From positions 45,434 through 109,433 of the forward strand of contig JAKITS010000001.1 in assembly GCA_021648085.1 (NCBI GenBank): a stretch of DNA of 64,000 bases. The letters are read 5' to 3'. The notes beneath the pieces are model-generated. The model was not told where the DNA came from, searched no databases, and worked only from the letters and a program-made list of their open reading frames with translations. Both the position numbers and the translations under genes were made by a program. Below are positions 2,743-64,000 of the stretch, piece by piece. The DNA is from Candidatus Magasanikiibacteriota bacterium. GTDB taxonomy: Bacteria; Patescibacteriota; Patescibacteriia; Magasanikbacterales; UBA922. The number at the start of each line of letters is the position of its first letter. The first letter of the stretch is position 1.

Positions 2743-3174
2743 ATGCCCCAGCAATTTGTAGTCCCACAATTTATAGATGTAGAAGACAAAATTTTTGGTC
2801 CAGTCACAACTAGACAATTCTTGATTTTGTTGGTGACTGCACTGATACTTTTTATTATTTTTAAACTTGCTGATATTGTTTTATTTGGTTTGCTAACTTT
2901 ACTTTTGGGTGGTTTTTCACTCGTTGTGGCTTTTGTAAAAGTAAATGGTCAGGCTTTTCATTATTTTATATTAAATATTTTTCAAACACTAAAAAAGCCT
3001 GGGTTGCGTGTGTGGAAAAAAGATTATTCAAAAGAAGATTTGGAATATTTGAGAAAATTTGGAATGAAAGAAGAAATAGAAGAAGAGCAGAAAAAAGAAA
3101 TAACAACACATAGAAAAATTAGAGACCTATCCCTAATTGTAAACACGGGTGGGTTTTATAAAGGAGAAGAATAA
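2743..3174 (+). CDS. small two-TM membrane protein, PrgI/VirB3-like T4SS component
   Basis: 143 aa, two adjacent hydrophobic helices, immediately upstream of VirB4-like genes (gene order typical of Gram-positive-type T4SS). Confidence 0.4.
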   Translation: MPQQFVVPQFIDVEDKIFGPVTTRQFLILLVTALILFIIFKLADIVLFGLLTLLLGGFSLVVAFVKVNGQAFHYFILNIFQTLKKPGLRVWKKDYSKEDLEYLRKFGMKEEIEEEQKKEITTHRKIRDLSLIVNTGGFYKGEE

Positions 3175-3176
3175 AT

Positions 3177-3860: not shown

Positions 3861-3862
3861 CT

Positions 3863-6457: not shown

Positions 6458-6781
6458 CGCGTCATATTGAGCGAAACGAAGTGGAGTCGAAATATCTCAA
6501 AAAAGTATAACCAGAATTATGAATATTTTATGTTCTTATGATTCTGTTTCGAGATCCATTCGACTTCATTCCGCTTTGCTACATTTCGCTCAGGATGACG
6601 TGAATATTTTACGTCATCCTGAGCGGAACGAAGTGGAGTCGAACGGATCCCTGTGCAGTATAACCAGAATATAAATAATTAAAATAAAACGTTAGTCCGT
6701 CTTTCTTTTTGTTCTTTGTTAATTGATAATTGCTAGTTTTGTGAAACTGTTTCGAGATCCTTCGGCTTCGCTCAAAATAAT
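6458..6781. repeat. cluster of 4 copies (mixed orientation) of dispersed intergenic repeat family, core CACGTCAT(C/A)(C/T)TGAGCG-[variable CGAAG-rich]-GGATCTCG(AAAC)
   Basis: copies at ~6458-6498 (+), 6544-6602 (-), 6612-6661 (+), 6749-6780 (-, partial); same family recurs at 15.7, 60.6, 62.7-63.1 and 63.9 kb. Confidence 0.75.
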
Positions 6782-15674: not shown

Positions 15675-15803
15675 CACGTCATATTGAGCGGAGTGAAACG
15701 AAGTCGAAATATCTCGGGAGAGTATCATTAGAATTGTGAATATTTAATGTTCTGGTTATTTTGTCTCGAGATCCTTCGGCTTTGCTCAGGAAGGTGTGTG
15801 TGG
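15675..15803. repeat. inverted pair of the dispersed repeat family (forward copy 15675-15715, reverse copy 15763-15803)
   Basis: cacgtcatattgagcggagtgaaacgaagtcgaaatatctc ... gtctcgagatccttcggctttgctcagg; can form a long hairpin. Confidence 0.75.
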
Positions 15804-27791: not shown

Positions 27792-27793
27792 TT

Positions 27794-30700
27794 ATGAGAT
27801 TGTTTAAGTCAAAATTTTTCCTATCAATATTTTTTACACTAGTTGTAGTTTCTTTATTTTTTGTTTCGGATATAACTGCTGTTTTTGCACAGCAGGCAGA
27901 TACTTTTGGTTTGGTGGAGGTCGGTCAAGTTACCGAGCTTGGAACGCAAGATATTCGTGTTACAATTGCAAAAATAATAAGAACACTCTTAGGTTTGTTG
28001 GGTGTTTTGGCTGTGTCTATTGTTTTATACGGAGGTTTTGTATATATGACTGCTGGCGGAAGTGAAGATAAACTTGGGCAGGCAAAGAAAATAATTATAA
28101 ATGGGGTTATTGGTTTGGTGATAGTTATGTCTTCTTTTGCAATTACACAGTTTGTCTTGTCGAGCCTTTCAGATGCAACAGGCTCGGGTAGTGTTGGGCT
28201 GTCTTCAAATAATTGTTCAAATACAGAATATGCTATAAACCATCCAAGTGAATGTTTTTCAAATTCAAATTCAGCTTGCACAAAATTTCCATCTTTTTGT
28301 AATTCAGCAGACTTCTTTTTTGTAAAAAGCATAACACCTTCTACACCAAACGGAGCAACAGGAATGAATAATATTGTTATAAGAGCAGTATTTAGTAAAT
28401 CTTTAGCATCAAATACAAATGTAGATTCTATATTTTCAGTTGAAAAAGATGGTATTTCTCAGCCTTTATCTATAAAACTTTCTCAATCTAGACAGGTGGT
28501 GGAGGCAACATTTAGAGCTACCACACCTTTGTGCGATGGGACTGTTCCACCAAATGAAACTTGTTTAGAGTTGGGTGATTTTACTATAAAAATTAATCCA
28601 GATATAAAAGACACAACAGGTAGAGAATTAACAAAAAATATAAATGGGCAGGAGTACCCTGTTTCAGCAGATTTTTCTGTGGATGTTGAGAACATAGACC
28701 ACACAAGACCAACTGTCACAAGTATGACAATAGATGGTTCAAATGCAGAAAATCAAAATATTACAATTGGAGATGCACATTCACTTAGAGTTGCAATGAT
28801 AGATAATACTGGAATTGGTTTTGTAAATATAAACATAAAAAATATAGACACAGGAAAAGTTATAGTAGAGTCTTTTGAGGGTCCAAATCCACTGGACGGA
28901 TCTTCTGGGGAATTTGTTATAGATTATCCTATTATATTGGGGGCTGATATAAATTCACTAGATAGATTTGATGTTTCTGTCACAATTTACGATATAGATC
29001 ATAATAGTAGTGTAAGTATTTTAAGCTTTATAGCTCTAGCAGAGAGCTGTACTAATGGTGTTCAAGATGGAGATGAAACAGGTGTTGATACTGGTGGTTC
29101 TTGCTCACTTTCTTCTGGTAGTTTTTGTGATGAAGATTGGCAGTGTGCCTCTCAAAAATGTGTAAACAACGAGTGTGTTGCTTGGCCAATGATTACAGAT
29201 ATTGATGCTTGGGATGGTGGATCTGGAAACTGGATTACAATTGCAGGACAGTTTTTTGGAGATAAGGAAGGTCTTGTTGAGTTTGGTACAGATTCCAATG
29301 GGGATGGCGAGATAAACGACTTAGATGTGTGGGTTAAAGCCGGTATTGCTATTTGTAGGAGTTTAACTACATGGAAAAACGATTGGATTGTAGTCCAGGT
29401 CCCAGATGATTCAGTTTTGCCAATAGGTTCAGAAAGTGCAATTCGTATTACTCTTGGAGACGGTACAGGGCTTAGTGATTCTACTGTCGATAGTCATGGT
29501 TCCATATCTGGACCAAACAATGGTTTGTTTACAAAAAACGAAATAAAAAGACCTAGTATTTGTGCCGTTGAATCTGTTTTGGGTTCTAATTCAGCAAAAC
29601 CAGATGCTGGTTTTGCTGTAATAGGAAAAAACTTCACAGACGATAAAACTGGAAATAAATTTGAGTTTGGTGGTGTAGAATTACCAACATTAATATGGGG
29701 AGATTTGGAAATTACAAGTAAAATACCGCTAAATACAAATGCTGGTAAGGTCTCTGTTCAGGTTGAGGTTGGTGGAGAAAGAAGTAATACAGTTCCTTTT
29801 ACTGTTTTGCCAATTGATAAAAATTTAATACCTTCAATTTCACTTGTAAACCCAGAAAATATAACAGTAGGAAGTTTTGTTACGCTTTCTGGAACTGGTT
29901 TTGGTGAAACAACAGGAATTGTTTATATATCTCCAAATTCTGGTGCTACTTGTACAGATATTTTGGCAGAAGGTTGTATTCAGGTGGAAGTTTCTTTACC
30001 AAATTTTTGTGGAGATACTTGGAGCTCTAATCAGGTTATTATAAAAATTCCAGATAACACACAATTTGGTGTGTACTATTTGGTTTTACAAAATGATTTT
30101 GGACTTCGTACAGATGGATCAGCTTTTGTTTCTGTTGTTGAGGGAGACCCTAGTCCTAGCATTTGTAAGATGATTCCACAGGCCGGGCCAGCACCACTGC
30201 CTGTTGGACATCAGGGTTTAGAATTTTTTGGGATTAACTTTTCTACAGACCCAACAGTATATTTTTGGTCTAAAACCGCAACAGAAGACGATCTTAATAC
30301 TTGGTTGAACGCAACAGGGAATGATGTAAATCAAATAGATCCGGATACTCATATTGTGAGTTATATCCCGAGTACGATAGAAGGATATTCAATGAAAACA
30401 GGTCCAATTGCCATCAGCTCTATCGATGGTGTTGTTAGTAATGCTGTAAATTACGAGGTTTCAGATTGTCGTGATGTTGGTGCTCCTGTTGGGTATCAGT
30501 GTTGTTCTGTTGGGCCAGACGCTGGAACAATAAAACCAAATGAATTTATTTGTGCAGGAGAGACAAGAGATGCTGGCTATGCTTGGAGATTTACGAGTGG
30601 TCTCCTGCCAAATATACCTTTTGTGGTCGAACAGTGCCCAGAATCAAGCGGTTCCGGAGTACCATCTCCAAGTCCCTGGATAAATAGAAAGCAGGGAGCA

Positions 30701-33700
30701 AATACTTGTTTAAATGCTTTGCCAACAGTTTTGTTTAGTGTGGGAATGAGTGATAGCTCACTTTCAGGAAATATTAGAGTTATTACTTGTGGAGAAGATA
30801 GTTTGCCACAGTGTGAAGATGAGGATATTTTTATTGATGTGTCTGCAGATTTTTCTGCTGGTCTGCGGTCTGAAGGATTTGTTTTAAACTTAACTAATAG
30901 TAATGGGGATTTAACACCAAACACTTGGTATAGGGTTGAACTTGGAAGTGGTTTGCAATCTCAAGAAATTAGGAGTATTTTGGGTATAGATCAGACAGTA
31001 AATGAAAACCTTTTAAAAACAAAATCTTGTGGAGACGGAACTTCTTATTGTTTTGAATTTAAAACAGGAGAAGGTTTATGTACCTTAACTTCTGCAGGTA
31101 TAATGCCAGGTACTCATACAACAAAAATACTAGGTCCTGTTTTGGACAGAAGATTTTCAAAAGAAAGTGAAACTTCACTGTTCTACCATATATTTGGAAA
31201 AGGAGATCAAGAGTGCACGGTTTTAGATGTTGATGGTTTCGGCTGGGACTGGAAGAGTCAAGATGATAATAAGGCAACTGTTGAGATAAGTGTTGGAGAT
31301 GGTTTTGTAGATACTAGAGCAATTGTAAATGCTATAGAAAATACAGCACCAGGAGATGTGAATATTTTTGCAATTTCAAGTAATTCACCTATCTCTCCTG
31401 TAAGTAGTTTAATTATAGATTTAGCAGATCCAAAAGTAGAATCGTATTGGCCAAACTGTGCAGAATCTTGTGTAAATAGTGGTGTTGGTGTCAAATTCAA
31501 CAGAGATATGAATGTTGCTGAATTTGTTTCAAATTTTAGGATAAGTGAGTGTATAGATGAATTTTGTAGTATCACATCAACCATCCCAATACAGTTTGAA
31601 ACTCTGAAAAAAAATAATTTAAATGTATTTCCTGTTGGAAATCTACAGCCAAACACTTGGTATTTTGTAGAGGTTTTTCCAGGAATTCATGCTATAGAAA
31701 AAGAAAATCCTCTTACTTATGGTAAAACAGTGGAAGCTTTTTCTTGGAAGTTTAGAACAAAAAATGACAGTACACTTTGTGGGATTGAGGATGTTTTGGT
31801 TGCCCCAACAAAATATATATCGCGTTTAATAGGAGATAGAAAAGAATATAAAGCAACTCCAATGAGTTTAGCAAATGAGTGTAGTTCTGCTGGACAAAGA
31901 TTAAATCCTTGGAATTTTGCATGGGGTTGGGAGGTCGTGGATACTCAAATAGCTAGTATCTCCTCTTTTGAAACTTTTGGAAAGTCAAAACCATTTTGCA
32001 CAACCTCTTGTTTGTTGGCAGGAAGTGTTGTGAGTTCAGATACTCAAAATGTAACTGCTTTGTGTGGAAATGGGATATTGGAGAGTGGGGAAGACTGTGA
32101 GTTGGATGACCCAGAAGAAGTATTAGGGGTTAGCTGTAGTTTAAGTTGTAAAAGAGTTGGGTCTGTAGCACCAACTTGTGGAGATGGGAGGATAGAATCG
32201 GCAAAAGGTGAGCAATGTGATACAGACGATGCTCTAACAGCCGAGGCTTGTAATGATAATTGTTTGTGGAAAGGTTCTTCAAAAGTAGAGCCAAAATCAA
32301 CAGCGCTAAATATTTCTTGGTGTGGAAGTGGTTCTGTAACATTTGGCGAAAGTTGTGATATTAAAGATCCGCTAACGCAAGATAGATGTTCAAATAAGTG
32401 TTTGAATTTGGGAACGCCTATCTCAAGTTATTGGTGTGAGCAAAATAAAACAAACGAATTACCAGACACAACTTTGGTAGGGCAGTCTGCAGAGTGTTTA
32501 TCTTCTGTAAGTATTTGTGGAAACGGATTATTGGAAAATGGAGAAGCTTGTGAAATCATTGCTAGTACTACTGTTGCGTTTGTGGGTGTTGGAAATGTTA
32601 CAGTTTCAAATGCTTCAGATGTTTGCTCTACTTCTTGTTTAGTTTCAAATGCTTGTGATGAACCAAACATGCCAACCTCAATAAGCTGTGATCCAAAGAT
32701 AGAGGAAGGTTGCACGCCAGAGTGTCTAAATTCTGGCTCATCTCTCGACTATTCAACACCTAGTCTGTGTAACGATGGAATTGTAGGGTTAGGGGAAGAT
32801 AGTTTATGTGAATTATCATCTACCGTACCTTTTGGTCAAAATCCATTGCAAATTGTAACAGCTATTGGAGATGGTGTTGTAAATCCAGATACAAATTCTC
32901 AAGATACACAAATAAGAGCTAGAGCTACAAAAACAAAAGATATAAATGGAAATCCTGTTGATATATCATCAGAATATGGAGAATCTTTATATTCATTACA
33001 GTGCGGATATACAAAATTTGAAGAGCTAATAAATAATAGATTTAACGACTGCCCTAATGCTATTGATGGTGTTGCTACGAACTCTTGTTGTTATACCAGA
33101 CCTCAAAGAGTAAGTGAGTATCCTGTGGATGGTTCTGGGATTGGAAATTCTAGTGCACCAGTTTGTTTGAATTCTTTTATAGAGGTTCATTTTGATGAAG
33201 AGATAAGCAAGTCTTCTGTAAGTGAAAATATATTATTAGCAAAAGGTTATCCGGGTGGATATGATTGTTCTGTAAGTGGAGAGGATAATGTGACAGAACA
33301 GGTGAGAAATTTACTTACTTTGCAAGAAGTAAAAGATGGAATTTGGACAAGGGTTTGGAAGGTTATAAAAAGATTTTTTACAAAAGCTGTTGGTTTGGAA
33401 GTTTTTGCAAGTATGTTTAGTGATTCAGATGTAGAGGTTTGGTGTGTGGGATCTGCAAATTTTAGAACAGATGTCTTGTATGAGGAAGATGTTGATGGAA
33501 ATATACTTTCCACAGATATTTCTATTTCTTTAACAAAGCTTTTGGATGTAGATACTGTTTATGCTGTAGTTTTGAAAAATGAAATTGAAAATTCTGAAGG
33601 TGTTGGAATATCTAGTCCAGATAGTTTAAGTGGTACTTTGGATGATTCATGGATTTTTAAAACTGGAGACGAGGTTTGTAAGATAGACAGCGTTTTTGTA

Positions 33701-36700
33701 AGACCGAGTGCAAAATTATTTGTAAAACCAAACACAACTAGCACTTTTTTTGCATTAGCTCAGAGTACTTCAAAACAAAGAATTGTGCCAATTGAAAATG
33801 TGTATGATTGGGAATGGCATTGGGCACCATTAAATAATGCAATTTTTGATATTTCTGCTTCAACTAGTTCTATAAATATAATAGCTTCTAAAGATTTAGA
33901 AGGAAGTGTTCTTGCAAGTGCAAATGCTGTAATTACTCACGACGCAGATCAAAACAATAGTCAGTTTGGAGAGTATTTTACCGGAATTACAAAATTGTTT
34001 GCTTTATTTTGTGAGAATCCTTGGCCACAATACGAATATTTTCCTTTTGAAGAAGGTATATCTTTTGGATCTTTGGGAAATATAAGTGGTTTTGAGCGGG
34101 GAGTTTTTGATGGCTCTACAATTCCAAAAGTTAGAATAGGTGGAGTATTTGAGTACTTTAATTTCAGTATGTCTTATTGTGCGGATAGTGGATCTTCTGA
34201 TAATAAAGCAGACGATCTTCCGTTCCTAAAACCTATTGTTCTTGTAAATGAATTTGATGTAGTTTCTGGTAATTTAGTTCAAGTTGGTGATAAAAGTTTG
34301 TCTGAGGATACTTTAAAAAAATTCTTCTTTTTCAATGAAAAAAATGATGATGTAATTGGTGTTCAAATTTTTATGAATCCGCTCAGGCTTACTGCCCGTG
34401 AATGGTATATAGAAAAATTTGGATCAGACATTGGAATGGATCAAATAACAGTTGCAGGTTATGATGCGTTGTCAGATAATAATAGTATTTATATAAACGC
34501 ACTAAATCAAGGTTCAAATGGAGATATTTATAATAATATTTACTTATTCAGTTTAAATGGAAGTGCGCAATCAAACACCCGTGAAGTTTTTGATATGTTG
34601 ATGGACTCACTTAAAATGAATATAAATATAAGTGAGTTTAATAGTTGCTCACAAGATGGGGATTTTAACACACCAAATATACAAGAAACAGTAGAGTGTA
34701 GCACAGACTTCGAATGTTTAGATGTTGCAGATTCTGGAGGGGTTTGCGCAAATGCACAGACAAAATTCAAAAGAGATTGGACGCGTCTAACAGACTTAAG
34801 GAATACTCAAGAAAAATTAGATTTTTATAAATTAGAAAATAATTCTTATCCAAAATTAGCTTCTGGATCTTTTATTCCAAACTACACAGTTTCCAAATGG
34901 TCATCTTGGGGAAACTTAAGTAATCTAATTGGTGGAGCGCCGTTAGATCCAGTAAACAAGTGGTCCGATTGTGGTGATTTGGATCCACAGACTTGTTGGG
35001 CTGCAGATGTTTCTGAATATGTTTGTCCAGAAAAAACTAGTGTGTACGAATATTCTTTTGACAGTATAACTAGTGATTACACGCTTCACATCCCTTTTGA
35101 ATATTTTGATTTATCCTCATCTGTAGTTTCAGGATTTTTGGACACTTCAAAAATTAAAATAGACAGGTGGTGTACACCGGGCGACATATATAACCCATCT
35201 TCTGGTGTGTGTGGAGATGGTGTAGTAAATGTTGGTGAACAGTGCGACCCTCCAAATTCTATAAATTACACAAATCAAGGTGTGGTTGGATCACAACAAT
35301 CTGGTTTTTGTGCAGATAGTTATTTGAACCAATCTATTTCTTGTATAAATTCAGCAGATTGTGGTTTATATTTGAATGTTGATGTTGAGCGATCAAAAAA
35401 GAGTATTTTTTCAGATACTGGTTCTGTTTGTTTCGGTGGAGTAGCAAAAGATTTACCATACGACATTTTAGCACATAAAAATGATGAAAGTAAATTATAT
35501 GGAATTAGTTGCCAAACATCTTCTGATTGTAAGTCTAAGGAAAATTATTTTAAAAATTTAACAGCAGGCGGATCTGGTGTACTTGGATTGTACAATGTTC
35601 AAAATGATAGTTTTGCTGAAGAGTCTTTAATTGGTGAATTTATATATAAAAACTTAGATGGAATAAAATGTCTTTCTTTACGGGATTTAGATATAGAATT
35701 TAGAAATGCTGGAAGTGGGACAAGGGGTACAAAACCTGTGGAGTGTAGTATTTCTACAAGTAATCCAATAATTGGATCTTGTAATAATGTAGGAGAATTG
35801 GCGCCAGCTCAGTGTACAGATAAGTGTACAATTAAATATGGAAGTTGTACTTCTTTTACAGACTGTGGAAACGGAAGGGTCGAAATTGGAGAAAATTGTG
35901 ATGATGGTGTAAAAAATGGAGAGTATGGAAGTTGTAATTTAACTTGTGATGGAGTTAGTGATCAGTATTGTGGAAATGGTCAAAAAGATGGTGCAAATGA
36001 AGTTTGTGATATAAATAATTTGGGTTTATCTGGATATTGTAGCAAAGATAAAAACATAAGCTGTTCTGATGATTTGGATTGTGGTGAGGTTAGAAATTTT
36101 GGTAGTTGTGGATATGAATATGTTTCTAATGTTCTAAAGCCTGTGTGTTCCTCAATAGATAGTAATGGTAATGTCCAACTTTCAAATTATCAGAATGGAA
36201 CGCAAGTGTTTTGTTATGACAACAGTTGTGATAAATTCGATAAAATTTATGGAACTTGTATTGCATCAAGTGATCCAACATACAGTTTTAATAAAGATAA
36301 TACTTGCGCTTGGGATTGTCAGGATTTTGGAGATTATTGCGGAGATGGAATTGTGCAAGGTGATTACGAAGCTTGCGATGATGGAAATTCAATAGACGAT
36401 GACAGTTGTGATAATTTTTGTGAAATTAATCTTTTAGCTACCACAAGTCAAGCAAGCTCTGCACCAAGTTGTGGAGATGGTGTGGTAGAAGAAGATGGTA
36501 CAGAAACTTGTGATTTGGGAGAGGATAATGGAATTAAATGTAGTCCATCTTATGGAGAATCTTGTAGTTACTGTTCACTAGATTGTGAAAATATTTTGAC
36601 AGTGGACCCTGTCGCGTATTGTGGAAATGAGACTGTTGATTTTAAATTTAATGATTTTAGTGATTGTTCAGATACTGGGAATATTTGCTTATCCGAACCT

Positions 36701-37981
36701 GTTTATGAGGCTTGTGATTTAAATAATAATAAAGTAGTCAAAAGAACTTCTTCTGGTCAAATATTAACACTTGAATGTGAAGACCAAGGCGCTTATTCGT
36801 GTAATAGTTGTAATGCACTTTCAGACAATTGTGCCAAATGTGTACTAGATACTTCAGGATTACTATCTGTTCCAAAAATCGCAATCCTAAATCCAATGAT
36901 AGGAAATGTGGAGCCTTTGGACAAAAACAGTGTGGATCGTTGGGGTTTTGAAGAGACTTTAGTTTTGGTGAGGCCAGAACCACCTGCAGGTTTTATTCAA
37001 AATCCTTATTTTGGATTTACAAGGCTTACAATGGAAAGTAGTATATATAAAGATCCAACACAGCAAAACTATATGATGGTTGAAAGTGGAACTGGTACTT
37101 ATGCACCTTATAAAGAACACACAATAGAAGGTAATGATTTATGTAGCGGAGAATATGGCGTTTATTTCAGTAATAAAGCTATATTTAATGCTGTAAATGG
37201 TTCAGAAGAAGGTTTTGAGGATAGTTATACAGATTTAACTCGTGGGGATCTTTATGATTATCCAGTAGACGGAACTGCTGAAATAAACAATGAAATAGTA
37301 TATTCTCCAGCTGTGCCACTAGAAGTATTTAGAGTAGTTGTAAAATGGACAGATAAGGAAGCTCGCTCAAATGTTTCGTTTAGTGGAATTGTTCAAAGTA
37401 ATTTTCTAAATCCAGCAGGAGAGTTGAACGGGGCTACTACATTTACAGACGCTGCTGCAGACAGAAAAATATGTAATCAGATAGGTTTAGTGAGTAATTT
37501 TCCAATAGAAGGTAGAAGTTTACCTAACTTTAATGAGTTTAGCAAATATTGGTGGCCAGAAAATACAGCTTGTGCTTACAATAAAAGAATCTATGTACAC
37601 CCAGAAGGAAGTATGGCTAGAACTTATACACAGTCTTTTACTATAGATACTTATAATGATAATGCAGACTATTCTTTTGTTGTGCAAGCTGTAAGTGGTT
37701 CTTTGGAAGGTTCACCAATAGCATCATTTCAGAATAGTAATTTGGAAGTAGAGGTGTACACTCATCACAGTGGACAGGTTCCTAGGGTTTCGGTTTTTAA
37801 ACCTACTCACACTTTCAAAATTAACCAATCACAAAAAAGCAGTAATAATGTGGCAAGATATTGGAGTGTATTTAATATTAAGAGGGTTTCAACCTCAGAA
37901 GGTTCAAAATATGAAATTCAAGCAATAGGAACAAACGGAAGTATAGAATCAACTTGGGATGAGGTTGTTCCTAATTTTTAA
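27794..37981 (+). CDS. giant (3395 aa) secreted/membrane-anchored cysteine-rich protein: VirB2/TrbC-like N-terminal domain + IPT/Ig-like modules + multiple Myxococcus-type cysteine-rich repeats (CG[DN]G...GE.CD)
   Basis: single uninterrupted ORF; >15 'CG(D/N)G..E.GE.CD(D)' repeats between aa ~1380-2600; start ATG 2 nt after previous stop. Confidence 0.6.
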   Translation: MRLFKSKFFLSIFFTLVVVSLFFVSDITAVFAQQADTFGLVEVGQVTELGTQDIRVTIAKIIRTLLGLLGVLAVSIVLYGGFVYMTAGGSEDKLGQAKKIIINGVIGLVIVMSSFAITQFVLSSLSDATGSGSVGLSSNNCSNTEYAINHPSECFSNSNSACTKFPSFCNSADFFFVKSITPSTPNGATGMNNIVIRAVFSKSLASNTNVDSIFSVEKDGISQPLSIKLSQSRQVVEATFRATTPLCDGTVPPNETCLELGDFTIKINPDIKDTTGRELTKNINGQEYPVSADFSVDVENIDHTRPTVTSMTIDGSNAENQNITIGDAHSLRVAMIDNTGIGFVNINIKNIDTGKVIVESFEGPNPLDGSSGEFVIDYPIILGADINSLDRFDVSVTIYDIDHNSSVSILSFIALAESCTNGVQDGDETGVDTGGSCSLSSGSFCDEDWQCASQKCVNNECVAWPMITDIDAWDGGSGNWITIAGQFFGDKEGLVEFGTDSNGDGEINDLDVWVKAGIAICRSLTTWKNDWIVVQVPDDSVLPIGSESAIRITLGDGTGLSDSTVDSHGSISGPNNGLFTKNEIKRPSICAVESVLGSNSAKPDAGFAVIGKNFTDDKTGNKFEFGGVELPTLIWGDLEITSKIPLNTNAGKVSVQVEVGGERSNTVPFTVLPIDKNLIPSISLVNPENITVGSFVTLSGTGFGETTGIVYISPNSGATCTDILAEGCIQVEVSLPNFCGDTWSSNQVIIKIPDNTQFGVYYLVLQNDFGLRTDGSAFVSVVEGDPSPSICKMIPQAGPAPLPVGHQGLEFFGINFSTDPTVYFWSKTATEDDLNTWLNATGNDVNQIDPDTHIVSYIPSTIEGYSMKTGPIAISSIDGVVSNAVNYEVSDCRDVGAPVGYQCCSVGPDAGTIKPNEFICAGETRDAGYAWRFTSGLLPNIPFVVEQCPESSGSGVPSPSPWINRKQGANTCLNALPTVLFSVGMSDSSLSGNIRVITCGEDSLPQCEDEDIFIDVSADFSAGLRSEGFVLNLTNSNGDLTPNTWYRVELGSGLQSQEIRSILGIDQTVNENLLKTKSCGDGTSYCFEFKTGEGLCTLTSAGIMPGTHTTKILGPVLDRRFSKESETSLFYHIFGKGDQECTVLDVDGFGWDWKSQDDNKATVEISVGDGFVDTRAIVNAIENTAPGDVNIFAISSNSPISPVSSLIIDLADPKVESYWPNCAESCVNSGVGVKFNRDMNVAEFVSNFRISECIDEFCSITSTIPIQFETLKKNNLNVFPVGNLQPNTWYFVEVFPGIHAIEKENPLTYGKTVEAFSWKFRTKNDSTLCGIEDVLVAPTKYISRLIGDRKEYKATPMSLANECSSAGQRLNPWNFAWGWEVVDTQIASISSFETFGKSKPFCTTSCLLAGSVVSSDTQNVTALCGNGILESGEDCELDDPEEVLGVSCSLSCKRVGSVAPTCGDGRIESAKGEQCDTDDALTAEACNDNCLWKGSSKVEPKSTALNISWCGSGSVTFGESCDIKDPLTQDRCSNKCLNLGTPISSYWCEQNKTNELPDTTLVGQSAECLSSVSICGNGLLENGEACEIIASTTVAFVGVGNVTVSNASDVCSTSCLVSNACDEPNMPTSISCDPKIEEGCTPECLNSGSSLDYSTPSLCNDGIVGLGEDSLCELSSTVPFGQNPLQIVTAIGDGVVNPDTNSQDTQIRARATKTKDINGNPVDISSEYGESLYSLQCGYTKFEELINNRFNDCPNAIDGVATNSCCYTRPQRVSEYPVDGSGIGNSSAPVCLNSFIEVHFDEEISKSSVSENILLAKGYPGGYDCSVSGEDNVTEQVRNLLTLQEVKDGIWTRVWKVIKRFFTKAVGLEVFASMFSDSDVEVWCVGSANFRTDVLYEEDVDGNILSTDISISLTKLLDVDTVYAVVLKNEIENSEGVGISSPDSLSGTLDDSWIFKTGDEVCKIDSVFVRPSAKLFVKPNTTSTFFALAQSTSKQRIVPIENVYDWEWHWAPLNNAIFDISASTSSINIIASKDLEGSVLASANAVITHDADQNNSQFGEYFTGITKLFALFCENPWPQYEYFPFEEGISFGSLGNISGFERGVFDGSTIPKVRIGGVFEYFNFSMSYCADSGSSDNKADDLPFLKPIVLVNEFDVVSGNLVQVGDKSLSEDTLKKFFFFNEKNDDVIGVQIFMNPLRLTAREWYIEKFGSDIGMDQITVAGYDALSDNNSIYINALNQGSNGDIYNNIYLFSLNGSAQSNTREVFDMLMDSLKMNINISEFNSCSQDGDFNTPNIQETVECSTDFECLDVADSGGVCANAQTKFKRDWTRLTDLRNTQEKLDFYKLENNSYPKLASGSFIPNYTVSKWSSWGNLSNLIGGAPLDPVNKWSDCGDLDPQTCWAADVSEYVCPEKTSVYEYSFDSITSDYTLHIPFEYFDLSSSVVSGFLDTSKIKIDRWCTPGDIYNPSSGVCGDGVVNVGEQCDPPNSINYTNQGVVGSQQSGFCADSYLNQSISCINSADCGLYLNVDVERSKKSIFSDTGSVCFGGVAKDLPYDILAHKNDESKLYGISCQTSSDCKSKENYFKNLTAGGSGVLGLYNVQNDSFAEESLIGEFIYKNLDGIKCLSLRDLDIEFRNAGSGTRGTKPVECSISTSNPIIGSCNNVGELAPAQCTDKCTIKYGSCTSFTDCGNGRVEIGENCDDGVKNGEYGSCNLTCDGVSDQYCGNGQKDGANEVCDINNLGLSGYCSKDKNISCSDDLDCGEVRNFGSCGYEYVSNVLKPVCSSIDSNGNVQLSNYQNGTQVFCYDNSCDKFDKIYGTCIASSDPTYSFNKDNTCAWDCQDFGDYCGDGIVQGDYEACDDGNSIDDDSCDNFCEINLLATTSQASSAPSCGDGVVEEDGTETCDLGEDNGIKCSPSYGESCSYCSLDCENILTVDPVAYCGNETVDFKFNDFSDCSDTGNICLSEPVYEACDLNNNKVVKRTSSGQILTLECEDQGAYSCNSCNALSDNCAKCVLDTSGLLSVPKIAILNPMIGNVEPLDKNSVDRWGFEETLVLVRPEPPAGFIQNPYFGFTRLTMESSIYKDPTQQNYMMVESGTGTYAPYKEHTIEGNDLCSGEYGVYFSNKAIFNAVNGSEEGFEDSYTDLTRGDLYDYPVDGTAEINNEIVYSPAVPLEVFRVVVKWTDKEARSNVSFSGIVQSNFLNPAGELNGATTFTDAAADRKICNQIGLVSNFPIEGRSLPNFNEFSKYWWPENTACAYNKRIYVHPEGSMARTYTQSFTIDTYNDNADYSFVVQAVSGSLEGSPIASFQNSNLEVEVYTHHSGQVPRVSVFKPTHTFKINQSQKSSNNVARYWSVFNIKRVSTSEGSKYEIQAIGTNGSIESTWDEVVPNF

Positions 37982-38480: not shown

Positions 38481-39344
38481 ATGTTTGATGATAAACCAAC
38501 AGACAATAATAATAAATTACCACCAAATTTGCCAACAAGTGAACCAGAAGATATTTTTGCAGGATCAGATGAAGATGTGAAAAGTGAACAAGAAGTATTA
38601 CAAGAACCGGAAAAAATGCCAGAACCAGAGGTTGAAAAAGAAACACAAGAAACAGCATTAAATGTTGGAGTTTTGCGTGCAAAAGCAGAAGGTGTTTCAG
38701 AGGAAAAACCAAAAGAAACTGAAATTAATCCTGTAGAGAATGAATTAAAACCAGATGAAAGTGGATTGCAACCAATTGATCATACAAAAAAAGTAGAAAT
38801 GCAAACACCGCCAACACAAAGTGGTGATCTTAAAAAGGAACTACAAAAATATGAGGTGAAAGAACCAGGTATGGCAAAGGCAATTATGATTGGTTCTATA
38901 GTTGTAGTTGCTTTAATTGTATTGTTAGGTGGTGCGTGGTGGCTTTATGCTACTTTTATGGCGGGTACAGAAGAGAAAAGTCCATTTGTTGATGAAGTTG
39001 TAGAGCCGGAAGTTGTGGAGGAGGTTGTTATTGAAGATGTATTGCCAGAAGATGTTTTAGATGATGAGTTATTGTTTGGCGGCGCAGTAGATTCAGATGG
39101 AGACGGTTTGGATGACATTAGAGAGTCTGATATAGGAACAGACCCAAACAATTGGGATACTGACGGCGATGCTTTAAGTGATTATGATGAAGTAACAATT
39201 TGGAAGACCAATCCACTGGATGCGGATACAGACGGAGATGGTTATTTAGACGGAGCAGAGGTTACAGCTGGTTTTAGCCCTACTGGACCTGGGAAATTAT
39301 TTGATGTGACAAATCTGGATTCTAGTAATACATCAACAAAGTAA
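38481..39344 (+). CDS. acidic membrane protein with C-terminal TSP3-like Ca-binding repeats (paralog of 38029..38403)
   Basis: central TM; 'DSDGDGLDDIRESDIGTDPNNWDTDGDALSDYDEV..DADTDGDGYLDGAEV'. Confidence 0.5.
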   Translation: MFDDKPTDNNNKLPPNLPTSEPEDIFAGSDEDVKSEQEVLQEPEKMPEPEVEKETQETALNVGVLRAKAEGVSEEKPKETEINPVENELKPDESGLQPIDHTKKVEMQTPPTQSGDLKKELQKYEVKEPGMAKAIMIGSIVVVALIVLLGGAWWLYATFMAGTEEKSPFVDEVVEPEVVEEVVIEDVLPEDVLDDELLFGGAVDSDGDGLDDIRESDIGTDPNNWDTDGDALSDYDEVTIWKTNPLDADTDGDGYLDGAEVTAGFSPTGPGKLFDVTNLDSSNTSTK

Positions 39345-59715: not shown

Positions 59716-60360
59716 ATGGGAATCGGAATTCTTTTATGGTATAATATTTTTATGTATTCAAGACCTGTCAAAATTTTAATAAAAAGATATAAACTGCTTT
59801 TAACAGCGGGTATTATTGGTACTGCAATTGTTCTTACTATTAGTCTGCTTGTTTCTCCGTTAGAATATCGCGCAGACGCTCAAGTTCTTATTATTTCTCA
59901 GTCCAGACTTGGTGTGGATCCTTATACTGTGGTAAAGTCTGCAGAGCGAATAGGGGAGAATTTAATTCAAATCATGAAGACAGAAGATTTTTTGAACAAG
60001 GTTATAGAGCAAGATATTGAAGTTTTCAATGAGTTGAACCTTCAGGAATTGGACACAAGGGAAAAAAGAAAGTTATGGAATAAATCCACTTCAGCTTCTG
60101 TAGTTTATGGCACTGGTGTTTTGAATGTTTCTGCGTTCCATCAAAATTCAGAAATAGCAGAAAAATTATCAAAAGCAGTTGTAGATACTTTAGTTTTTAA
60201 AGGTTGGGAATATGTTGGTGGAGATGTGGTTATAAAGGTTATCAACAATCCAGTGGCTACAAAATTTCCCGTTAGGCCAAATTTACCATTGAATGCTTTT
60301 GCAGGTTTTGTATTCGGAACTATATTTATGGGGTTAATTCTTGTTAGAAAGTTTAGATAA
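59716..60360 (+). CDS. membrane protein with N- and C-terminal TM helices (Wzz/CpsC-like topology)
   Basis: TM at both ends, ~150-aa periplasmic-like middle; TATAAT at 59738-59743 is 8 nt before ATG 59752 (possible leaderless start). Confidence 0.3.
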   Translation: MGIGILLWYNIFMYSRPVKILIKRYKLLLTAGIIGTAIVLTISLLVSPLEYRADAQVLIISQSRLGVDPYTVVKSAERIGENLIQIMKTEDFLNKVIEQDIEVFNELNLQELDTREKRKLWNKSTSASVVYGTGVLNVSAFHQNSEIAEKLSKAVVDTLVFKGWEYVGGDVVIKVINNPVATKFPVRPNLPLNAFAGFVFGTIFMGLILVRKFR

Positions 60361-60632
60361 AAAATAAATTTAATAAAAATTCTGTGCTAAAATAAGCCAA
60401 AAAATTGGCTTATTTTTTATTTTTAGCTAAAATTAGCTAAATAAACTTGACAAAACTATATTTTTATGGTATTTTTATCTATCGTCTTTAAAACTTATAA
60501 GTTTGTGAAGTAAAAAGTTAAAAGTTCTTTTTTGTCATTTCTGGCTTGACTAGGAATCTAGGAGTCTTTATTAAATGAACAACGAAAGAAAGGTGTGGAT
60601 TTTTGGTCAAACTAAAAATAACAGAAAATATT

Positions 60633-60737
60633 CACGTCATCCTGAGCGAAGCCGAAGGATCTCGAGAAAGTATCACCTTTCCTTCACGTCATCCTGAGCG
60701 GAATGAAGCAGGGCGGAATGAAGTCGAATGGATCTCG
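60633..60737 (+). repeat. two tandem copies of dispersed repeat family (second with expanded variable segment)
   Basis: cacgtcatcctgagcgaagccgaaggatctcg... and cacgtcatcctgagcggaatgaagcagggcggaatgaagtcgaatggatctcg. Confidence 0.8.
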
Positions 60738-60842
60738 TAATAAAATCACAATACTTTAAATATTCATAATTCTGGTAATATAATCTCAAGATATTTCGGT
60801 TATGTTCAATATGACTTGTAATGTTTTATTAAAAATAAGGTG

Positions 60843-60915
60843 AGAATAATTTAGAAAATATAAAAATATTTTTTAAATCATCTTCATCAATTCTGATGAA
60901 GAACTGCTTTGGGTG
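60843..60915 (+). promoter_or_regulatory. conserved upstream module with perfect palindrome tcttcatca-attc-tgatgaaga (60881-60902); paralogous copy at 63090-63160
   Basis: ~70 nt shared with 63090-63160; the palindrome shows a compensatory T:A->C:G change between copies. Confidence 0.55.
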
Positions 60916-60983
60916 AAAGCTCAAAATAGTGTTCGTGTTTTTTACAAACCATAATAATACTCACAATTCCTGAGGAGGAAAAA

Positions 60984-62504
60984 ATGAGCAAGGACAATGA
61001 CAATAATCACGGTTCGGAAATTTTGGAACTTGAAGTTGGTGGGGCTGACCTCCTTTTCAATGAAGGGGAGGCAGAAGATGTTGTCGACGCTTTGGCGGAG
61101 ACGACACTTGTAAATGCAGTTGTGGAAGAAGATGTTTCTTTCACAGTCATTCCCAGCCGAGACCAAGAAGAGGAGATTCAAAACCTCCTCGGAGCTCTAG
61201 GGAAAACAGGTGAGGAGTCTCCAGAAGACTCACTTCAAGCTTTCTCCAAAAGTGGGGATGACGAGGAGTGGAAACCTGCAGTAGTGGTGGAGGCTGAGAA
61301 GTCTACCACCAAAAAACAGGCAGCTGGAGCTCACCAAAAAGTAGAGGTTTTTTCCTCCAAAAAAATCCCGATAGGAACTCCAATTGGACTTCCTCATGGG
61401 AATACTCCCAGAATCCGAAAGGATTTGGGTGGGGTGCAGGAGATCTTGAGGGAGGATGGAACATCCAAACTCAAGGCTGTTCCTATGGATGGGAATACTT
61501 TAACAGCTCCTGTCACGGAGTTGTCGGAGTCTGCACAAGAGGAAGAGTTTTTCAAAGGTGGTGACACTCCACCAAAAGGCTTCAAAGCTGTTCAAAAAGA
61601 TGGTGAAAATCGTCTTGGAGATACATGGGTCGATGAAGATCCATCGTGGTTCGACCGAAACAGCTCAAGCATTTTGGGGTTTGGGATTATCGCTATTGTG
61701 GCGGTAATTCTTTCACTGGTGTTTTTGACTTTGGACATAGCCAAAGCTCCAAACCTCTCGACAGAGGAGCAGACCGCCGAAAAGTCGATAAGTTCCGAAA
61801 AACTCTTTCCTCCCACTTCAGATTCTTCTTCGGAAGAGGAGAAATGGACAGAGGAGGAAAAGAGAAACTTGGAGTCGGAAAAGGCTTTGTCACTTGCTGA
61901 GGAGAATCGCGAAAAGGCAGAAGATCTAGCAGAAGAGTTAGTTTCTTCCGCTACGAGCGCATCTCCAACTACCTCTCCTATTGGATTGGGAAGTACTACA
62001 GGAGCTCTTGATGTGGTGACAACAACAATCGGTGATGATTCTTCGAAAGAGGAAGTCGTTGTTGAAGTCAAAGAAGAAGTTGACTATTCCGAAGCATATG
62101 AAAATATACAAGGAGAAGTTGGTGGACTCGCCGAAGATGTTGAACTGTTCGCAGTCGATGTTCTCGGTGCGATTTCTGAAACTACTTGGCTTACTGTACG
62201 CACTCAACTTGCTAAAGAGGGTTCCGTCGCCGAAACCGAGGAAACAGATTCAGATGATGATTTGGACATTGAGTTCGAAGTCTCTGATGAACCTTCGGGT
62301 GGTGGATATTTTGATATGTCCACAGACGAAATTCTCGCACTAGACTACACAAATCCTCGCGGTGAGGATGATTGTGTGGCTATTATGAGTAGAGCTGGAT
62401 CGGACGAAGTTGGTGAGTTCGAAGGTATGCTCTGTTGCAGAAATCTCCAGATTCTTTCTGGAAAAGATGTGACAGATTGTCAAATTAGAGTGGAAAACTT
62501 TTAG
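60984..62504 (+). CDS. acidic single-pass membrane protein with novel C-terminal Cys domain (..DYTNP.GEDDC...GMLCCRNLQI...DCQIRV); visibly higher G+C than surroundings
   Basis: 506 aa; central TM 'ILGFGIIAIVAVILSLVFLTL'; C-terminal ~55 aa shared with 63209..63739. Confidence 0.5.
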   Translation: MSKDNDNNHGSEILELEVGGADLLFNEGEAEDVVDALAETTLVNAVVEEDVSFTVIPSRDQEEEIQNLLGALGKTGEESPEDSLQAFSKSGDDEEWKPAVVVEAEKSTTKKQAAGAHQKVEVFSSKKIPIGTPIGLPHGNTPRIRKDLGGVQEILREDGTSKLKAVPMDGNTLTAPVTELSESAQEEEFFKGGDTPPKGFKAVQKDGENRLGDTWVDEDPSWFDRNSSSILGFGIIAIVAVILSLVFLTLDIAKAPNLSTEEQTAEKSISSEKLFPPTSDSSSEEEKWTEEEKRNLESEKALSLAEENREKAEDLAEELVSSATSASPTTSPIGLGSTTGALDVVTTTIGDDSSKEEVVVEVKEEVDYSEAYENIQGEVGGLAEDVELFAVDVLGAISETTWLTVRTQLAKEGSVAETEETDSDDDLDIEFEVSDEPSGGGYFDMSTDEILALDYTNPRGEDDCVAIMSRAGSDEVGEFEGMLCCRNLQILSGKDVTDCQIRVENF

Positions 62505-62518
62505 GAGGTGAGTAAAAT

Positions 62519-62558
62519 CGACCGATTGTGAATATAGAAATATATCCACAATCGGTCG
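62519..62558 (+). terminator. terminator hairpin (12-bp stem cgaccgattgtg / cacaatcggtcg)
   Basis: read in sequence right after stop codon. Confidence 0.6.
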
Positions 62559-62575
62559 TAAACTACATTTTAGAC

Positions 62576-62604
62576 TTGACAAAAGTATAAAAATGTGGTA
62601 TAGT
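62576..62604 (+). promoter_or_regulatory. consensus sigma70 promoter TTGACA-N17-TATAGT reading into the repeat array
   Basis: exact -35 hexamer, 17-bp spacer, near-consensus -10. Confidence 0.6.
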
Positions 62605-62642
62605 TATATATTGATTTTTAAATAGAAAAGTGAAACATTTGC

Positions 62643-63080
62643 GAGATATTTCGACTCCGTTTCACTGCGCTCAATATGACGTAAAATAGTCATGTCATCC
62701 TGAGCGGAACAAAGTAAAGTCGAATGGATCTCGAGACAATATCACTTTTTCACACGTCATCCTGAGCGAAGCCGAAGGATCTCGAAACAGAATCACAGAG
62801 TATAAACATTAAAAATCACACACGTCATCCTGAGCGAAGTCGAAGGATCTCGAAACAGAATCACAGAGTACAAACATTAAAAACCACACACGTCATCCTG
62901 AGCGAAGTCGAAGGATCTCGAAACAGAATCACAGAGTACAAACATTAAAAACCACACACGTCATCCTGAGCGAAGTCGAAGGATCTCGAAACAGAATCAC
63001 AAAGTACAAACATTAAAAACCACACACGTCATCCTGAGCGAAGTCGAAGGATCTCGAAACAGAATCACAGAGTATAAAAG
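62643..63080 (+). repeat. repeat-family array: reverse copy (62643-62681), variant forward copy (62694-62752), then 5 tandem 68-bp units (62753-63080)
   Basis: period 68 bp (not a multiple of 3); units differ by only 1-3 SNPs, i.e. the inter-repeat segments are identical rather than spacer-like. Confidence 0.85.
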
Positions 63081-63127
63081 AAAAAAGTGAGAATTGTTTA
63101 GAAAATATAAAAATATTTTTTAAACAA

Positions 63128-63149
63128 TCTTCACTAATTCTGGTGAAGA
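63128..63149 (+). promoter_or_regulatory. palindrome tcttcacta-attc-tggtgaaga (paralogous operator-like site)
   Basis: see 60881-60902. Confidence 0.5.
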
Positions 63150-63208
63150 AGTTCATTCCATATTATTTCATTCCTTTCCTTTCCTTCTTTTTTTCACGTT
63201 TTTAAAGC

Positions 63209-63739
63209 GTGAAGGAGAAAACAATGTCCGAAGAAAAAAAAGAAAAAAAAGAACAAGAAGAACAAGAAGAACAAGAACAAAAAGAACAAGAAGAACAAGA
63301 AGAACAAGAAGAAGAGAGGGAGGTGGAGACACCTCTCAAGGAGAAAAAGACAATAAATTGGATTTGGGGAGCGCTTGCCATTTGGGCAAGTGTTCTCGTG
63401 ATTTGGGGATTGGCGAGTATTTTCTCCTCGGACGATGAGTTCGTAGAGAAAGAGTCGTCACCGCCGCCACCAGTGGTAGTGGCAACAACTTCAATCCCAA
63501 CTCCAATTTTATTACCTCCAACACCTATTGTGGTGAACGGGGTATGCTCATATCTTCCGGATTATACAAATCCCGGAGATGAGGACTGGTGCGTGAAAGT
63601 CGCACAGGAGGCAAAGAGACTTTGTTCTGGCGAAGATGCAGAATTCTACGGCATGCTTTGCTGTAGGAATTTGCAGATTAAAATCGACGACGATGTCGTC
63701 GATTGTCAGATTCGAGTCTCTAGTGTTTTTTATAGATAA
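63209..63739 (+). CDS. acidic (EEQ-repeat) single-pass membrane protein with the same C-terminal Cys domain (paralog of 60984..62504)
   Basis: 'DYTNPGDEDWC...YGMLCCRNLQIKIDDDVVDCQIRV'; TM 'WIWGALAIWASVLVIWGLASIF'; Pro-rich linker. Confidence 0.5.
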   Translation: MKEKTMSEEKKEKKEQEEQEEQEQKEQEEQEEQEEEREVETPLKEKKTINWIWGALAIWASVLVIWGLASIFSSDDEFVEKESSPPPPVVVATTSIPTPILLPPTPIVVNGVCSYLPDYTNPGDEDWCVKVAQEAKRLCSGEDAEFYGMLCCRNLQIKIDDDVVDCQIRVSSVFYR

Positions 63740-63753
63740 GGAGGAATGAAAAC

Positions 63754-63786
63754 AGCCAGATTTGTGATTTCTCACAAATCTGGCTG
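63754..63786 (+). terminator. terminator hairpin cagccagatttgtga-tttc-tcacaaatctggctg
   Basis: read in sequence after stop. Confidence 0.6.
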
Positions 63787-63803
63787 TAAAATACTTTTTA
63801 CAC

Positions 63804-63832
63804 TTGACAAAAGTTAGAAAGTATGCTATTAT
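63804..63832 (+). promoter_or_regulatory. sigma70 promoter TTGACA-N17-TATTAT reading into next repeat copies
   Basis: same CACTTGACAAAAGT context as 62573-62586. Confidence 0.55.
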
Positions 63833-63892
63833 CTTATATTATTTAAAAAGTGAAAATTATTATTAAAATTTTGAGTTAAAGTGAATTGGTTG

Positions 63893-64000
63893 CGAGATAT
63901 TTCGACTCCGTTTCACTCCGCTCAATATGACGTAAAATAGTTGCATCATCCAAAAAAATAGAAATTATCTTAAAGAAATATTTTGCAACACGTCATCCTG
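63893..64000. repeat. repeat-family copies (reverse copy 63893-63932; forward copy begins 63989, truncated by window end)
   Basis: gagatatttcgactccgtttcactccgctcaatatgacgt ... cacgtcatcctg. Confidence 0.75.

Follow-up and report, generated by a model that had tools for sequence, protein, structure and literature searches.

Bacteria of the candidate phyla radiation (CPR; Patescibacteria) account for a large share of bacterial diversity and are thought to be attached to other cells, and the molecules at this interface are almost entirely unknown. Two published reports come closest to the genes described here: one on Cys-rich, strain-variable extracellular proteins of Peribacteria (PMC4736985), the other on a hypervariable Gracilibacterium gene for a surface protein with a single transmembrane segment (PMC6851277). 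We analyzed a 64-kb stretch of DNA (64,000 nucleotides, hereafter the window) from a metagenome-assembled genome (MAG) of an uncultured, ultra-small bacterium, Candidatus Magasanikbacteria (CPR), and in particular the locus formed by its last 3.6 kb, which carries two G+C-rich genes for acidic, predicted membrane proteins, A and B. With the proteins of the two reports, A and B share the superphylum, a predicted extracellular or membrane-anchored nature, Cys content or local hypervariation, inferred cell attachment, and a position near a heavy investment in envelope sugars (PMC4736985, PMC6851277). Unlike A and B, the proteins in these sources are large, with ~1,650 amino acids (aa) on average, have signal peptides or N-terminal transmembrane segments, and vary in repeats (PMC4736985, PMC6851277), whereas A and B are small to medium in size, are probably anchored with the N terminus inside and the C terminus outside (N-in/C-out), carry one 50-aa domain, and vary as whole open reading frames (ORFs) between conserved scaffolds. 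A G+C-rich ORF in an AT-rich genome, as found here, is not reported for the Peribacteria or Gracilibacterium proteins in the text accessible to us (PMC4736985, PMC6851277).

On balance, we lean toward the reading that A and B with their flanks are autonomous expression cassettes for fast-evolving surface-display proteins. The locus consists of two full copies and the start of a third copy of a repeated unit, in which a very stable hairpin is followed by a near-consensus promoter, dispersed repeats, a leader of 75 to 80 nt, a spacer of ~70 to 90 nt, and a gene. The spacer is less conserved and has a strong ribosome-binding site at its 3′ end. Gene A (60984..62504, plus strand, 506 aa) and gene B (63224..63739, plus strand, 171 aa) are identical in sequence to NCBI MCF6276306.1 and MCF6276307.1, both annotated as "hypothetical protein" of a Candidatus Magasanikbacteria MAG and encoded on a contig of 984,181 bp. 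The modular context of the two genes, already recognized in a preliminary description of this DNA, proved to be real and is also conserved in related organisms. That description let gene B begin at GTG 63209; the most likely start is instead ATG 63224, in line with the NCBI annotation.

Evidence for our reading comes from the comparison with a related species, whose syntenic locus lies on the 9.5-kb JGI contig L010 in the order PDZ-like gene, Wzz-like gene, ~900 bp of repeats, the orthologues A′ and B′, a gene for a 340-aa secreted protein, and a gene for a 461-aa Cys-rich secreted protein with TSP3 repeats. Amino acid identity between window and L010 is 61% for the PDZ-like and 82% for the Wzz-like protein, 43% for A, and 25% for B. 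Nucleotide identity amounts to 71% for the PDZ-like and 78% for the Wzz-like gene, to 90% for the hairpin/promoter region (62557-62619, aligned with L010 4449-4511), and to 71 to 76% for the leaders; the coding DNA of A and B is not alignable, save one 77-nt stretch. The region of the first promoter likewise lies inside a 78%-identical alignment with L010, which reaches 60500. A third contig from another sample, L001, has flanks that are 85 to 90% identical to those of the B′ cassette of L010, yet it carries a different allele (P0003) within them and a different gene after it, and the similarity ends and restarts a few bases from the start and stop codons. An exchange of whole coding alleles, through recombination in flanks common to all of them, would be expected to leave such a pattern; the alternative is extremely fast divergence in place. 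The alignments are best read as showing that evolution of the coding parts, or their exchange between strains, far outpaces change in the regulatory scaffold. It is unusual for a bacterial locus that the control sequences are better conserved than the encoded proteins.

Variation was also seen at finer scale. Two strains that are 98% identical (L003 and L010) differ in A′ mainly in a cluster of 26 codons (aa 196 to 221) just before the transmembrane segment, with 7 non-synonymous and 6 synonymous changes, and by four in-frame 3-nt indels, which makes this a local hot spot of change. Blocks conserved between A and A′ on the predicted cytoplasmic side are NLLGALG, W.PAVVVEAEK, RIR.DLGGV.E.LR.DGTSKLKAVP, and PSWF.RN. 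A test for a diversity-generating retroelement revealed no nucleotide repeat of the two domain-coding segments (62337-62501 and 63545-63736) within 60300-64000, the whole window being unscanned for reverse transcriptase; between the domains of A and B, differences at synonymous sites are numerous and involve all base types.

Each unit has a promoter. The three copies combine TTGACA, a 17-nt spacer, and a −10 hexamer preceded by TG: P1 (60447..60475, TATTTT), P2 (62576..62604, TATAGT), and P3 (63804..63832, TATTAT), all on the plus strand, the last opening a third cassette that leaves the window. They match 10 to 11 of the 12 consensus positions (10 in P1, 11 in P2) in addition to the TG. They fit the sigma-70 pattern with TG before the −10 hexamer, and activity is predicted; the TTGACA promoters noted earlier downstream of A and of B correspond to P2 and P3. 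The hairpins that precede P2 and P3 follow the stop codons of A (62519..62558, plus strand, 18-bp arms, −23.4 kcal/mol, z score −8.0) and B (63752..63787, plus strand, 16-bp perfect arms, −26.6 kcal/mol, z score −8.8). The preliminary description called them terminators. A very stable hairpin does stand after each gene; a U-tract 3′ of the stems is absent on the plus strand, where TAAACTAC... and AAAATACT... follow, and a terminator scan scores both hairpins on the minus strand only. The left edge of the array is formed by a hairpin with a T-run (60389..60416, plus strand), scored as the terminator of the upstream Wzz-like gene (59716-60360, Pfam Wzz match with an E value of 5.5e-6).

The leader is the best-defined noncoding part of the unit. 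An 80-nt block is 84% identical between 60831-60910 and 63078-63157, the sole two copies in the 64 kb, which bears out the conserved palindromic region described earlier upstream of both genes. Leader A (60838..60912) and leader B (63085..63159, an "AAGUGAG...UUCACU" subtype of the same hairpin element) both lie on the plus strand. Seven leader copies from three sources, situated upstream of A-type, B-type, and unrelated 340-aa-type genes, were folded with RNAalifold into a 21-bp hairpin in which 147 of 147 cells are paired and 4 pairs show compensatory changes. Several positions form G-U pairs that are mismatched on the opposite strand, so that only the plus strand fits. In agreement with this, a covariance model gave 82 to 94 bits on the plus strand (91.7 for leader A, 90.1 for leader B) and 21 to 28 bits on the minus strand (22 for leader A), and it detected no further copies in the window or in the related loci. 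Single-sequence folds had z scores of −2.6 to −5.5, and the minimum-energy fold alternates among copies between two conformations. In the first the outer stem GGUGAGA/UCUUCAUC is formed, and in the second the same UCUUCAUC pairs downstream with GAUGAAGA; in leader A the outer stem competes with a second hairpin, UCUUCAUCA/UGAUGAAGA. We read the leader as a strand-specific, possibly two-state RNA element of the 5′ untranslated region, which could serve as an mRNA stabilizer, a processing site for a double-strand-specific RNase, or a binding site for a regulator. A leader RNA that is common to several cassettes and supported by covariation is itself unusual. Rfam at gathering score yielded only tRNAs and tmRNA in the window, and matches in 60300-64000 were at chance level (E values up to 5). 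A promoter candidate within the leader (TAGAAA, 18 nt, AATCAT) was judged improbable, as it is too weak (8 of 12 positions) and its −35 hexamer is not conserved.

A short hairpin adjoins the Shine-Dalgarno sequence of gene B (63193..63213, plus strand, −11.3 kcal/mol, z score −3.2) and is kept in the B-type cassettes of the relatives. The stem is of the CACGTG type in B-type cassettes, whereas the 340-aa and 461-aa cassettes of the relatives have a GCAGGC...GCCTGC stem beside the ribosome-binding site; hairpins of this kind were noted at L010 ~5000-5025 and ~5975-6000 and at L001 ~140-165. Such a hairpin may tune translation or stabilize the mRNA.

The interval between promoter and leader is occupied by a dispersed repeat family, CGTCAT[CC/AT]TGAGCG...CGAA..ATCTCG (core GTCATCCTGAGCG...GGATCTCG), with units of 30 to 45 nt and 15 matches in the window against 0.28 expected. 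Two forward units (CACGTCATCCTGAGCG...GGATCTCG) lie between P1 and leader A (60633..60740, plus strand). Between P2 and leader B, within 62641-63078, a single inverted unit of the GTCATATTGAGCG...ATATCTCG variant (family D6; 62641..62682, minus strand) is followed by forward units (62690..63078, plus strand), and the third cassette starts with an inverted unit (63892-63933) and a forward unit from ~63990 (63892..64000). Repeats were also found at L001 940-1150 and L010 2200-2830. They do not belong exclusively to the module, since they recur at 6460-6640 and 15677-15800. Inverted pairs ~125 bp apart are frequent, an arrangement like that of a miniature transposable element. Folded by themselves, the units show no significant RNA structure (z score about −0.3). 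Between P2 and leader B a 68-bp unit, made up of the repeat core and 36 nt, is amplified 4.8-fold in tandem at 97% identity (62751-63078). The syntenic cassette of L010 lacks this array, so the amplification is probably recent. A CRISPR array was rejected as an explanation of the 68-bp repeats: whole units, including the would-be spacers, are 97% identical. The repeats also generate spurious ORFs, e.g., 60575-60697 and 60603-60740, and the relatives bear a second repeat family (GTCATTCCCGCGCTAGTCGGGAATCC). A literature search for the repeat core returned an unrelated primer only.

The proteins encoded by A and B are alignable by BLASTP only in their C-terminal domain (62337..62501 in A, 63545..63736 in B, both on the plus strand), with 32 of 55 residues identical (58%) at an E value of 2e-16. 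The shared ~55-aa domain and the unrelated N-terminal and linker regions thus agree with the preliminary description, and the similarity is not of low complexity. The count of five to six conserved Cys given there needs correction: the Cys domain is real, and four Cys are common to A and B. In A these are Cys 464, 484, 485, and 499; B has six (Cys 108, 123, 134, 146, 147, and 161), and B-type proteins have one additional Cys pair. All Cys of both proteins fall inside the domain, and the four common ones are invariant in five of five family members, with one each in helix 1 and helix 3 and an adjacent pair midway along helix 2 of the structure predicted by AlphaFold. For the domain alone AlphaFold returned a confident three-helix bundle (helices 22-35, 38-56, and 61-72 of a 73-aa query) with a predicted local distance difference test score (pLDDT) of 86.2 and a predicted template modeling score of 0.73. 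In this model the CC pair would staple helix 2 to helix 1 and helix 3, judged by the placement of the Cys. Fold searches with the domain gave generic helical matches only.

Protein A comprises a predicted cytoplasmic N-terminal region (aa 1 to 229, net charge −25), one transmembrane segment (aa 230 to 250, 61671-61733), an acidic linker (net charge −40), and the Cys domain (aa 452 to 506). Protein B has an N-terminal tail of E/Q/K repeats, a transmembrane segment (aa 44 to 67, 63353-63424), a Pro-rich linker, and the Cys domain (aa 108 to 171). Each has one hydrophobic segment and no signal peptide, and in B, P0003, and P0006 Lys/Arg residues precede the transmembrane segment and acidic residues follow it. 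These features probably place both proteins N-in/C-out, with the domain outside the cytoplasm. Of the acidic membrane proteins with a novel extracytoplasmic Cys domain that had been proposed, the acidity and the novelty stand, and the outside location is probable. A full-length AlphaFold model of A had a pLDDT of 34 and low confidence except for the transmembrane helix (229 to 250) and the same three domain helices; no folded cytoplasmic domain was found in it. The 5′ end of gene B contains two A8 runs (63234-63241 and 63243-63250) and a 9-nt periodic repeat (~9.6 copies, 63231-63315) that encodes the E/Q/K repeats. Slippage in this tract could cause length variation or on/off switching; the tract is not conserved in P0003 or B′.

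The family is small. With a two-sequence profile of the domain, an exhaustive HMMER search recovered from 1.84e9 cluster representatives A, B, P0003 (216 aa, E value 1.6e-11), and P0006 (466 aa, E value 8e-4), and a fifth member, B′ (163 aa, L010 5035-5526), came from contigs carrying family proteins together with a leader-pattern scan of JGI metagenomes. The whole family is thus A, B, A′ (P0006/P0007, the 43%-identical orthologue), B′, and P0003. Two further HMMER matches, P0004 and P0005, were discarded because repeats had produced them: one is a TxxD repeat protein of 2016 aa, the other an ORF of tandem "SLCC" repeats. In the leader-pattern scans, two metagenome matches were real, three others were due to chance (L005, L008, and L009), and so was one in Fusobacterium among genome contigs (L004). 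Searches with A, B, or the domain gave best E values of 0.3 and 0.002 in Pfam, well short of the cut-offs and in low-complexity regions, weak low-complexity matches only in NCBIfam, and no matches in PHROGs or PADLOC; a PDB sequence search returned no match for the domain profile and an E value of 0.43 for the A profile. With the B domain, a five-sequence domain alignment, or the A/A′ alignment as query, word-indexed searches for homologues found only the queries themselves, a scan of GTDB genome contigs with the domain alignment found no relative, and neither a viral contig scan nor phage tblastn found a family member. The domain appears to be new, and the family is so far limited to a few related uncultured organisms.

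We confirmed by calculation that A and B are richer in G+C than their surroundings. In 300-nt windows the G+C fraction is 0.43 to 0.49 over 60900-62550 and 0.46 to 0.48 over 63300-63750, compared to 0.25 to 0.35 in the surroundings. The G+C fraction at third codon positions (GC3) is 0.39 in both genes, against 0.21 ± 0.03 (maximum, 0.29) in the 46 other ORFs of the window, and four-fold degenerate sites are 34% (A) and 42% (B) G+C against a background of 15%. Because GC3 and four-fold sites deviate, the anomaly lies at synonymous sites and is not an amino acid effect. Nor can high expression or surface location be the cause, since GC3 is 0.12 in the gene for ribosomal protein S16 and 0.20 in that for a 287-aa protein with bacterial TSP3 repeats (38481-39344), an internal control of ordinary composition; translational selection was rejected on the S16 value. 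In the related species, with a background of ~31% G+C, the cassette genes have GC3 values of 0.51 to 0.66. The most extreme is the gene for the 461-aa secreted protein with many Cys and TSP3 repeats (L010 7196-8581, corresponding to L006 7022-8407 on the minus strand), with 57% G+C and a GC3 of 0.66. Synonymous sites did not return to the genomic value after the two species had split; some process therefore keeps their G+C content high. Candidates are GC-biased conversion with frequent recombination, selection acting on the mRNA, and the repeated import of alleles from an unseen pool that is richer in G+C. A synonymous-site G+C excess that is limited to ORFs and older than the split of two species is unusual.

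The domain has a further feature in its C-terminal half. Over the 23 aligned residues that start at GxxCC and end with helix 3, A and B are identical at 18 of 23 positions and A′ and B′ at 16 of 23, compared to 8 of 23 for each of the orthologous pairs A/A′ and B/B′. Recent gene conversion between A and B was rejected: the residues that are identical within a genome use different codons in 10 of 18 and 13 of 19 cases. As a lead from two genomes, either an old conversion has been kept by selection or A and B are constrained together, through mutual binding or one common partner. The within-genome likeness of this half suggests that A and B act jointly or have the same partner.

If they are expression cassettes for surface-display proteins, A and B would open a tandem array, as its first and second units, beside an envelope-polysaccharide locus. 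Each cassette would consist of a sigma-70 promoter, a long 5′ region colonized by repeats like miniature inverted-repeat transposable elements, a two-state RNA leader, a small hairpin with a strong ribosome-binding site, a G+C-rich ORF, and a very stable 3′ hairpin. The cassettes would probably be highly expressed and serve envelope proteins: largely disordered, acidic N-in/C-out stalks that would present a ~50-aa three-helix Cys bundle outside, where it may act as a small disulfide-stapled helical binding module. The cargo genes would be under diversifying pressure or frequent allele exchange, and A and B may work together or touch one fast-evolving partner, for instance in surface adhesion or recognition. 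A cell-surface role fits the gene neighborhood, in which the Wzz-like gene, the TSP3 and Cys-rich secreted neighbors of the relatives, and, further along on L006, genes for a TSP3/collagen-like lipoprotein, an O-antigen-ligase-like protein, and glycosyltransferases are found. The 461-aa protein has weak NCBIfam matches to Myxococcus MtsC (cell-cell cohesion), driven by repeats; this resemblance points the same way. From these features we infer that an adhesion or recognition module on variable stalks is the most plausible function.

Several points weigh against this reading. Protein A has one Lys or Arg on either side of its transmembrane segment, so that the positive-inside rule gives no topology for it, and the AlphaFold model of the domain was built from just four sequences. 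Promoter use and the role of the leader are read from sequence, the covariation comes from only seven leader copies of two subtypes and three closely related sources, and shuffling is known to give an optimistic control when the sequences are related. It is uncertain that the 3′ hairpins act as terminators. The within-genome match is known from two genomes, where old gene conversion rather than joint function is possible, and the high GC3 is left without a cause by the cassette model.

A reading that goes further would supply such a cause; its probability is low, though it is the highest among the other readings that we considered. In such a CPR-specific system the scaffold would offer fixed docking sites for the recombinational exchange of whole G+C-rich alleles among strains and species, A and B would be matched partners by way of their three-helix Cys domains and set the specificity of cell-cell recognition of host or kin, and the lasting high GC3 would have been left behind by very frequent GC-biased conversion. 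If the G+C excess does reflect biased conversion in frequent allele exchange, the locus would naturally mark recombination hot spots in organisms that have not yet been grown; if it reflects selection on mRNA, it would point to a further, unknown level at which expression is controlled in reduced, AT-rich genomes.

The composition led the preliminary description to suggest a horizontal origin, i.e., that A, B, and the other G+C-rich cassette genes came from a G+C-richer donor and kept its composition. The strong codon deviation described above, the 57 to 60% G+C of neighboring cassette genes in the relatives, and the TSP3 repeats of one of these, which are common in Myxococcota proteins too, speak for such an event. 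A recent acquisition is nevertheless not supported. A genomic-island test found the composition deviant, but the genes are present at the syntenic site in L010, L006, and L007, and the flanking proteins of this equally AT-rich relative are 61 to 82% identical to those of the window, which makes any acquisition older than the split. As the syntenic locus of the relative carries the G+C-rich genes with an even higher GC3, instead of one that has decayed toward ~0.2, they are ancestral at this site. The changes in composition fall at start and stop codons, and the adjoining AT-rich DNA is conserved and looks native. No donor homologue was found beyond the lineage in the 1.84e9 representatives, GTDB genomes, JGI metagenomes, viral contigs, or phages, and the 6 kb upstream contain PDZ-like and Wzz-like neighbors and no mobility genes. 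We therefore regard foreign origin as improbable.

Similarly improbable is the idea that A and B are bitopic sensors of an anti-sigma or receptor type, in which the small ectodomain would sense a ligand and, in A, the conserved cytoplasmic blocks would relay the signal. The predicted single-pass N-in/C-out architecture of A and B, with a small ectodomain, resembles that of anti-sigma factors, and the cytoplasmic region of A does have blocks conserved in its orthologue. However, no anti-sigma, kinase, or other signaling domain was detected in the Pfam, NCBIfam, and PDB searches, no sigma factor or regulator gene is adjacent, the tail of B comprises only 43 aa of low complexity, and AlphaFold shows no folded cytoplasmic domain. 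The neighboring cassettes, which encode secreted Cys-rich and TSP3 proteins, point to the surface instead. We rate this possibility slightly below foreign origin.

An effector, adhesion, or toxin-like module had also been proposed for the Cys domain. Adhesion or recognition holds up as the most plausible of these, whereas a small secreted or displayed toxin, or a bacteriocin-like effector for neighboring cells, is quite unlikely. In favor of a toxin are the small size, Cys stabilization, and C-terminal position of the domain, together with the fast evolution of the genes and their strain-specific alleles. The pattern is nevertheless the reverse of that of polymorphic toxins, in that A and B have unrelated N-terminal regions and only the C-terminal domain in common. 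What follows downstream is not an immunity gene but a paralogue under a promoter of its own, the proteins are without a signal peptide, a known delivery domain, or a toxin match in PADLOC, PHROGs, or Pfam, and the fold-search matches offer no enzymatic precedent for a ~50-aa three-helix bundle. That the locus is an artefact of chimeric assembly or contamination, or that the ORFs are not genuine genes, is hardly credible, because, for all that the window stems from a MAG and related contigs are often short and break at repeats, independent assemblies of at least five samples (JGI Ga0119967 and Ga0210044; ENA ERZ27293362, ERZ27293342, and ERZ17912254) contain the same junctions of AT-rich and G+C-rich DNA, and the ORFs are intact, are preceded by strong ribosome-binding sites, and are conserved at the protein level with invariant Cys.

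The remainder of the window contains CPR housekeeping genes, among them those for SMC, ribosomal protein S16, KhpA, signal peptidase, HisRS, FtsA, and tmRNA. Two regions of normal composition were noted besides: type IV secretion-like genes at 2743-5752, with a PrgI-family protein and a TraG/VirB4-like ATPase, and at 25788-37981 a gene for a 667-aa protein with T4SS-pilin and Big_5 domains, directly followed by an ORF of 3395 aa.

The locus, for which we prefer the reading as a cassette array for surface-display proteins, can be compared with several known systems. Like integrons and CRISPR-like arrays, it has tandem units with repeated, partly palindromic noncoding elements between them, and the cargo differs while the junctions are conserved. 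Unlike in integrons, every unit has its own near-consensus promoter and 3′ hairpin; the flanking PDZ-like and Wzz-like genes are not integrases, and no attC-type site was seen there. S-layer and other major surface-protein genes have strong promoters and long structured 5′ leaders that stabilize the mRNA. The cassettes share with them a near-consensus promoter, a long 5′ region with a stable hairpin, a strong ribosome-binding site, and a stable 3′ hairpin, and these signals fit an abundant envelope protein; unlike in S-layer genes, to which there is no sequence relation, the leader is common to several unrelated tandem genes and apparently has two conformations.

At the protein level, small helical bundles of ~50 aa displayed on flexible stalks, as in the domains of protein A and the GA module, are typical protein-binding modules. 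The A/B domain is a predicted three-helix bundle like these and like the disulfide-stapled ciliate pheromones, a generic resemblance of fold only. Myxococcus TraA/TraB and Dictyostelium tgrB1/tgrC1 are polymorphic, co-evolving, adjacent recognition genes. A and B are likewise adjacent genes for predicted surface proteins with strong strain differences and within-genome matching of partners; unlike those pairs, with which they share no homology, their co-variation concerns two genomes and half of a small domain. The locus thereby offers a testable candidate for the interface of CPR bacteria with other cells, with a small, foldable, putatively Cys-stapled domain that, once expressed, could help to probe for partners. 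Variable surface proteins of CPR bacteria as a general kind are already known, whereas the domain, the shared regulatory scaffold, the persistent G+C excess limited to ORFs, and the within-genome matching of A and B appear to be new.

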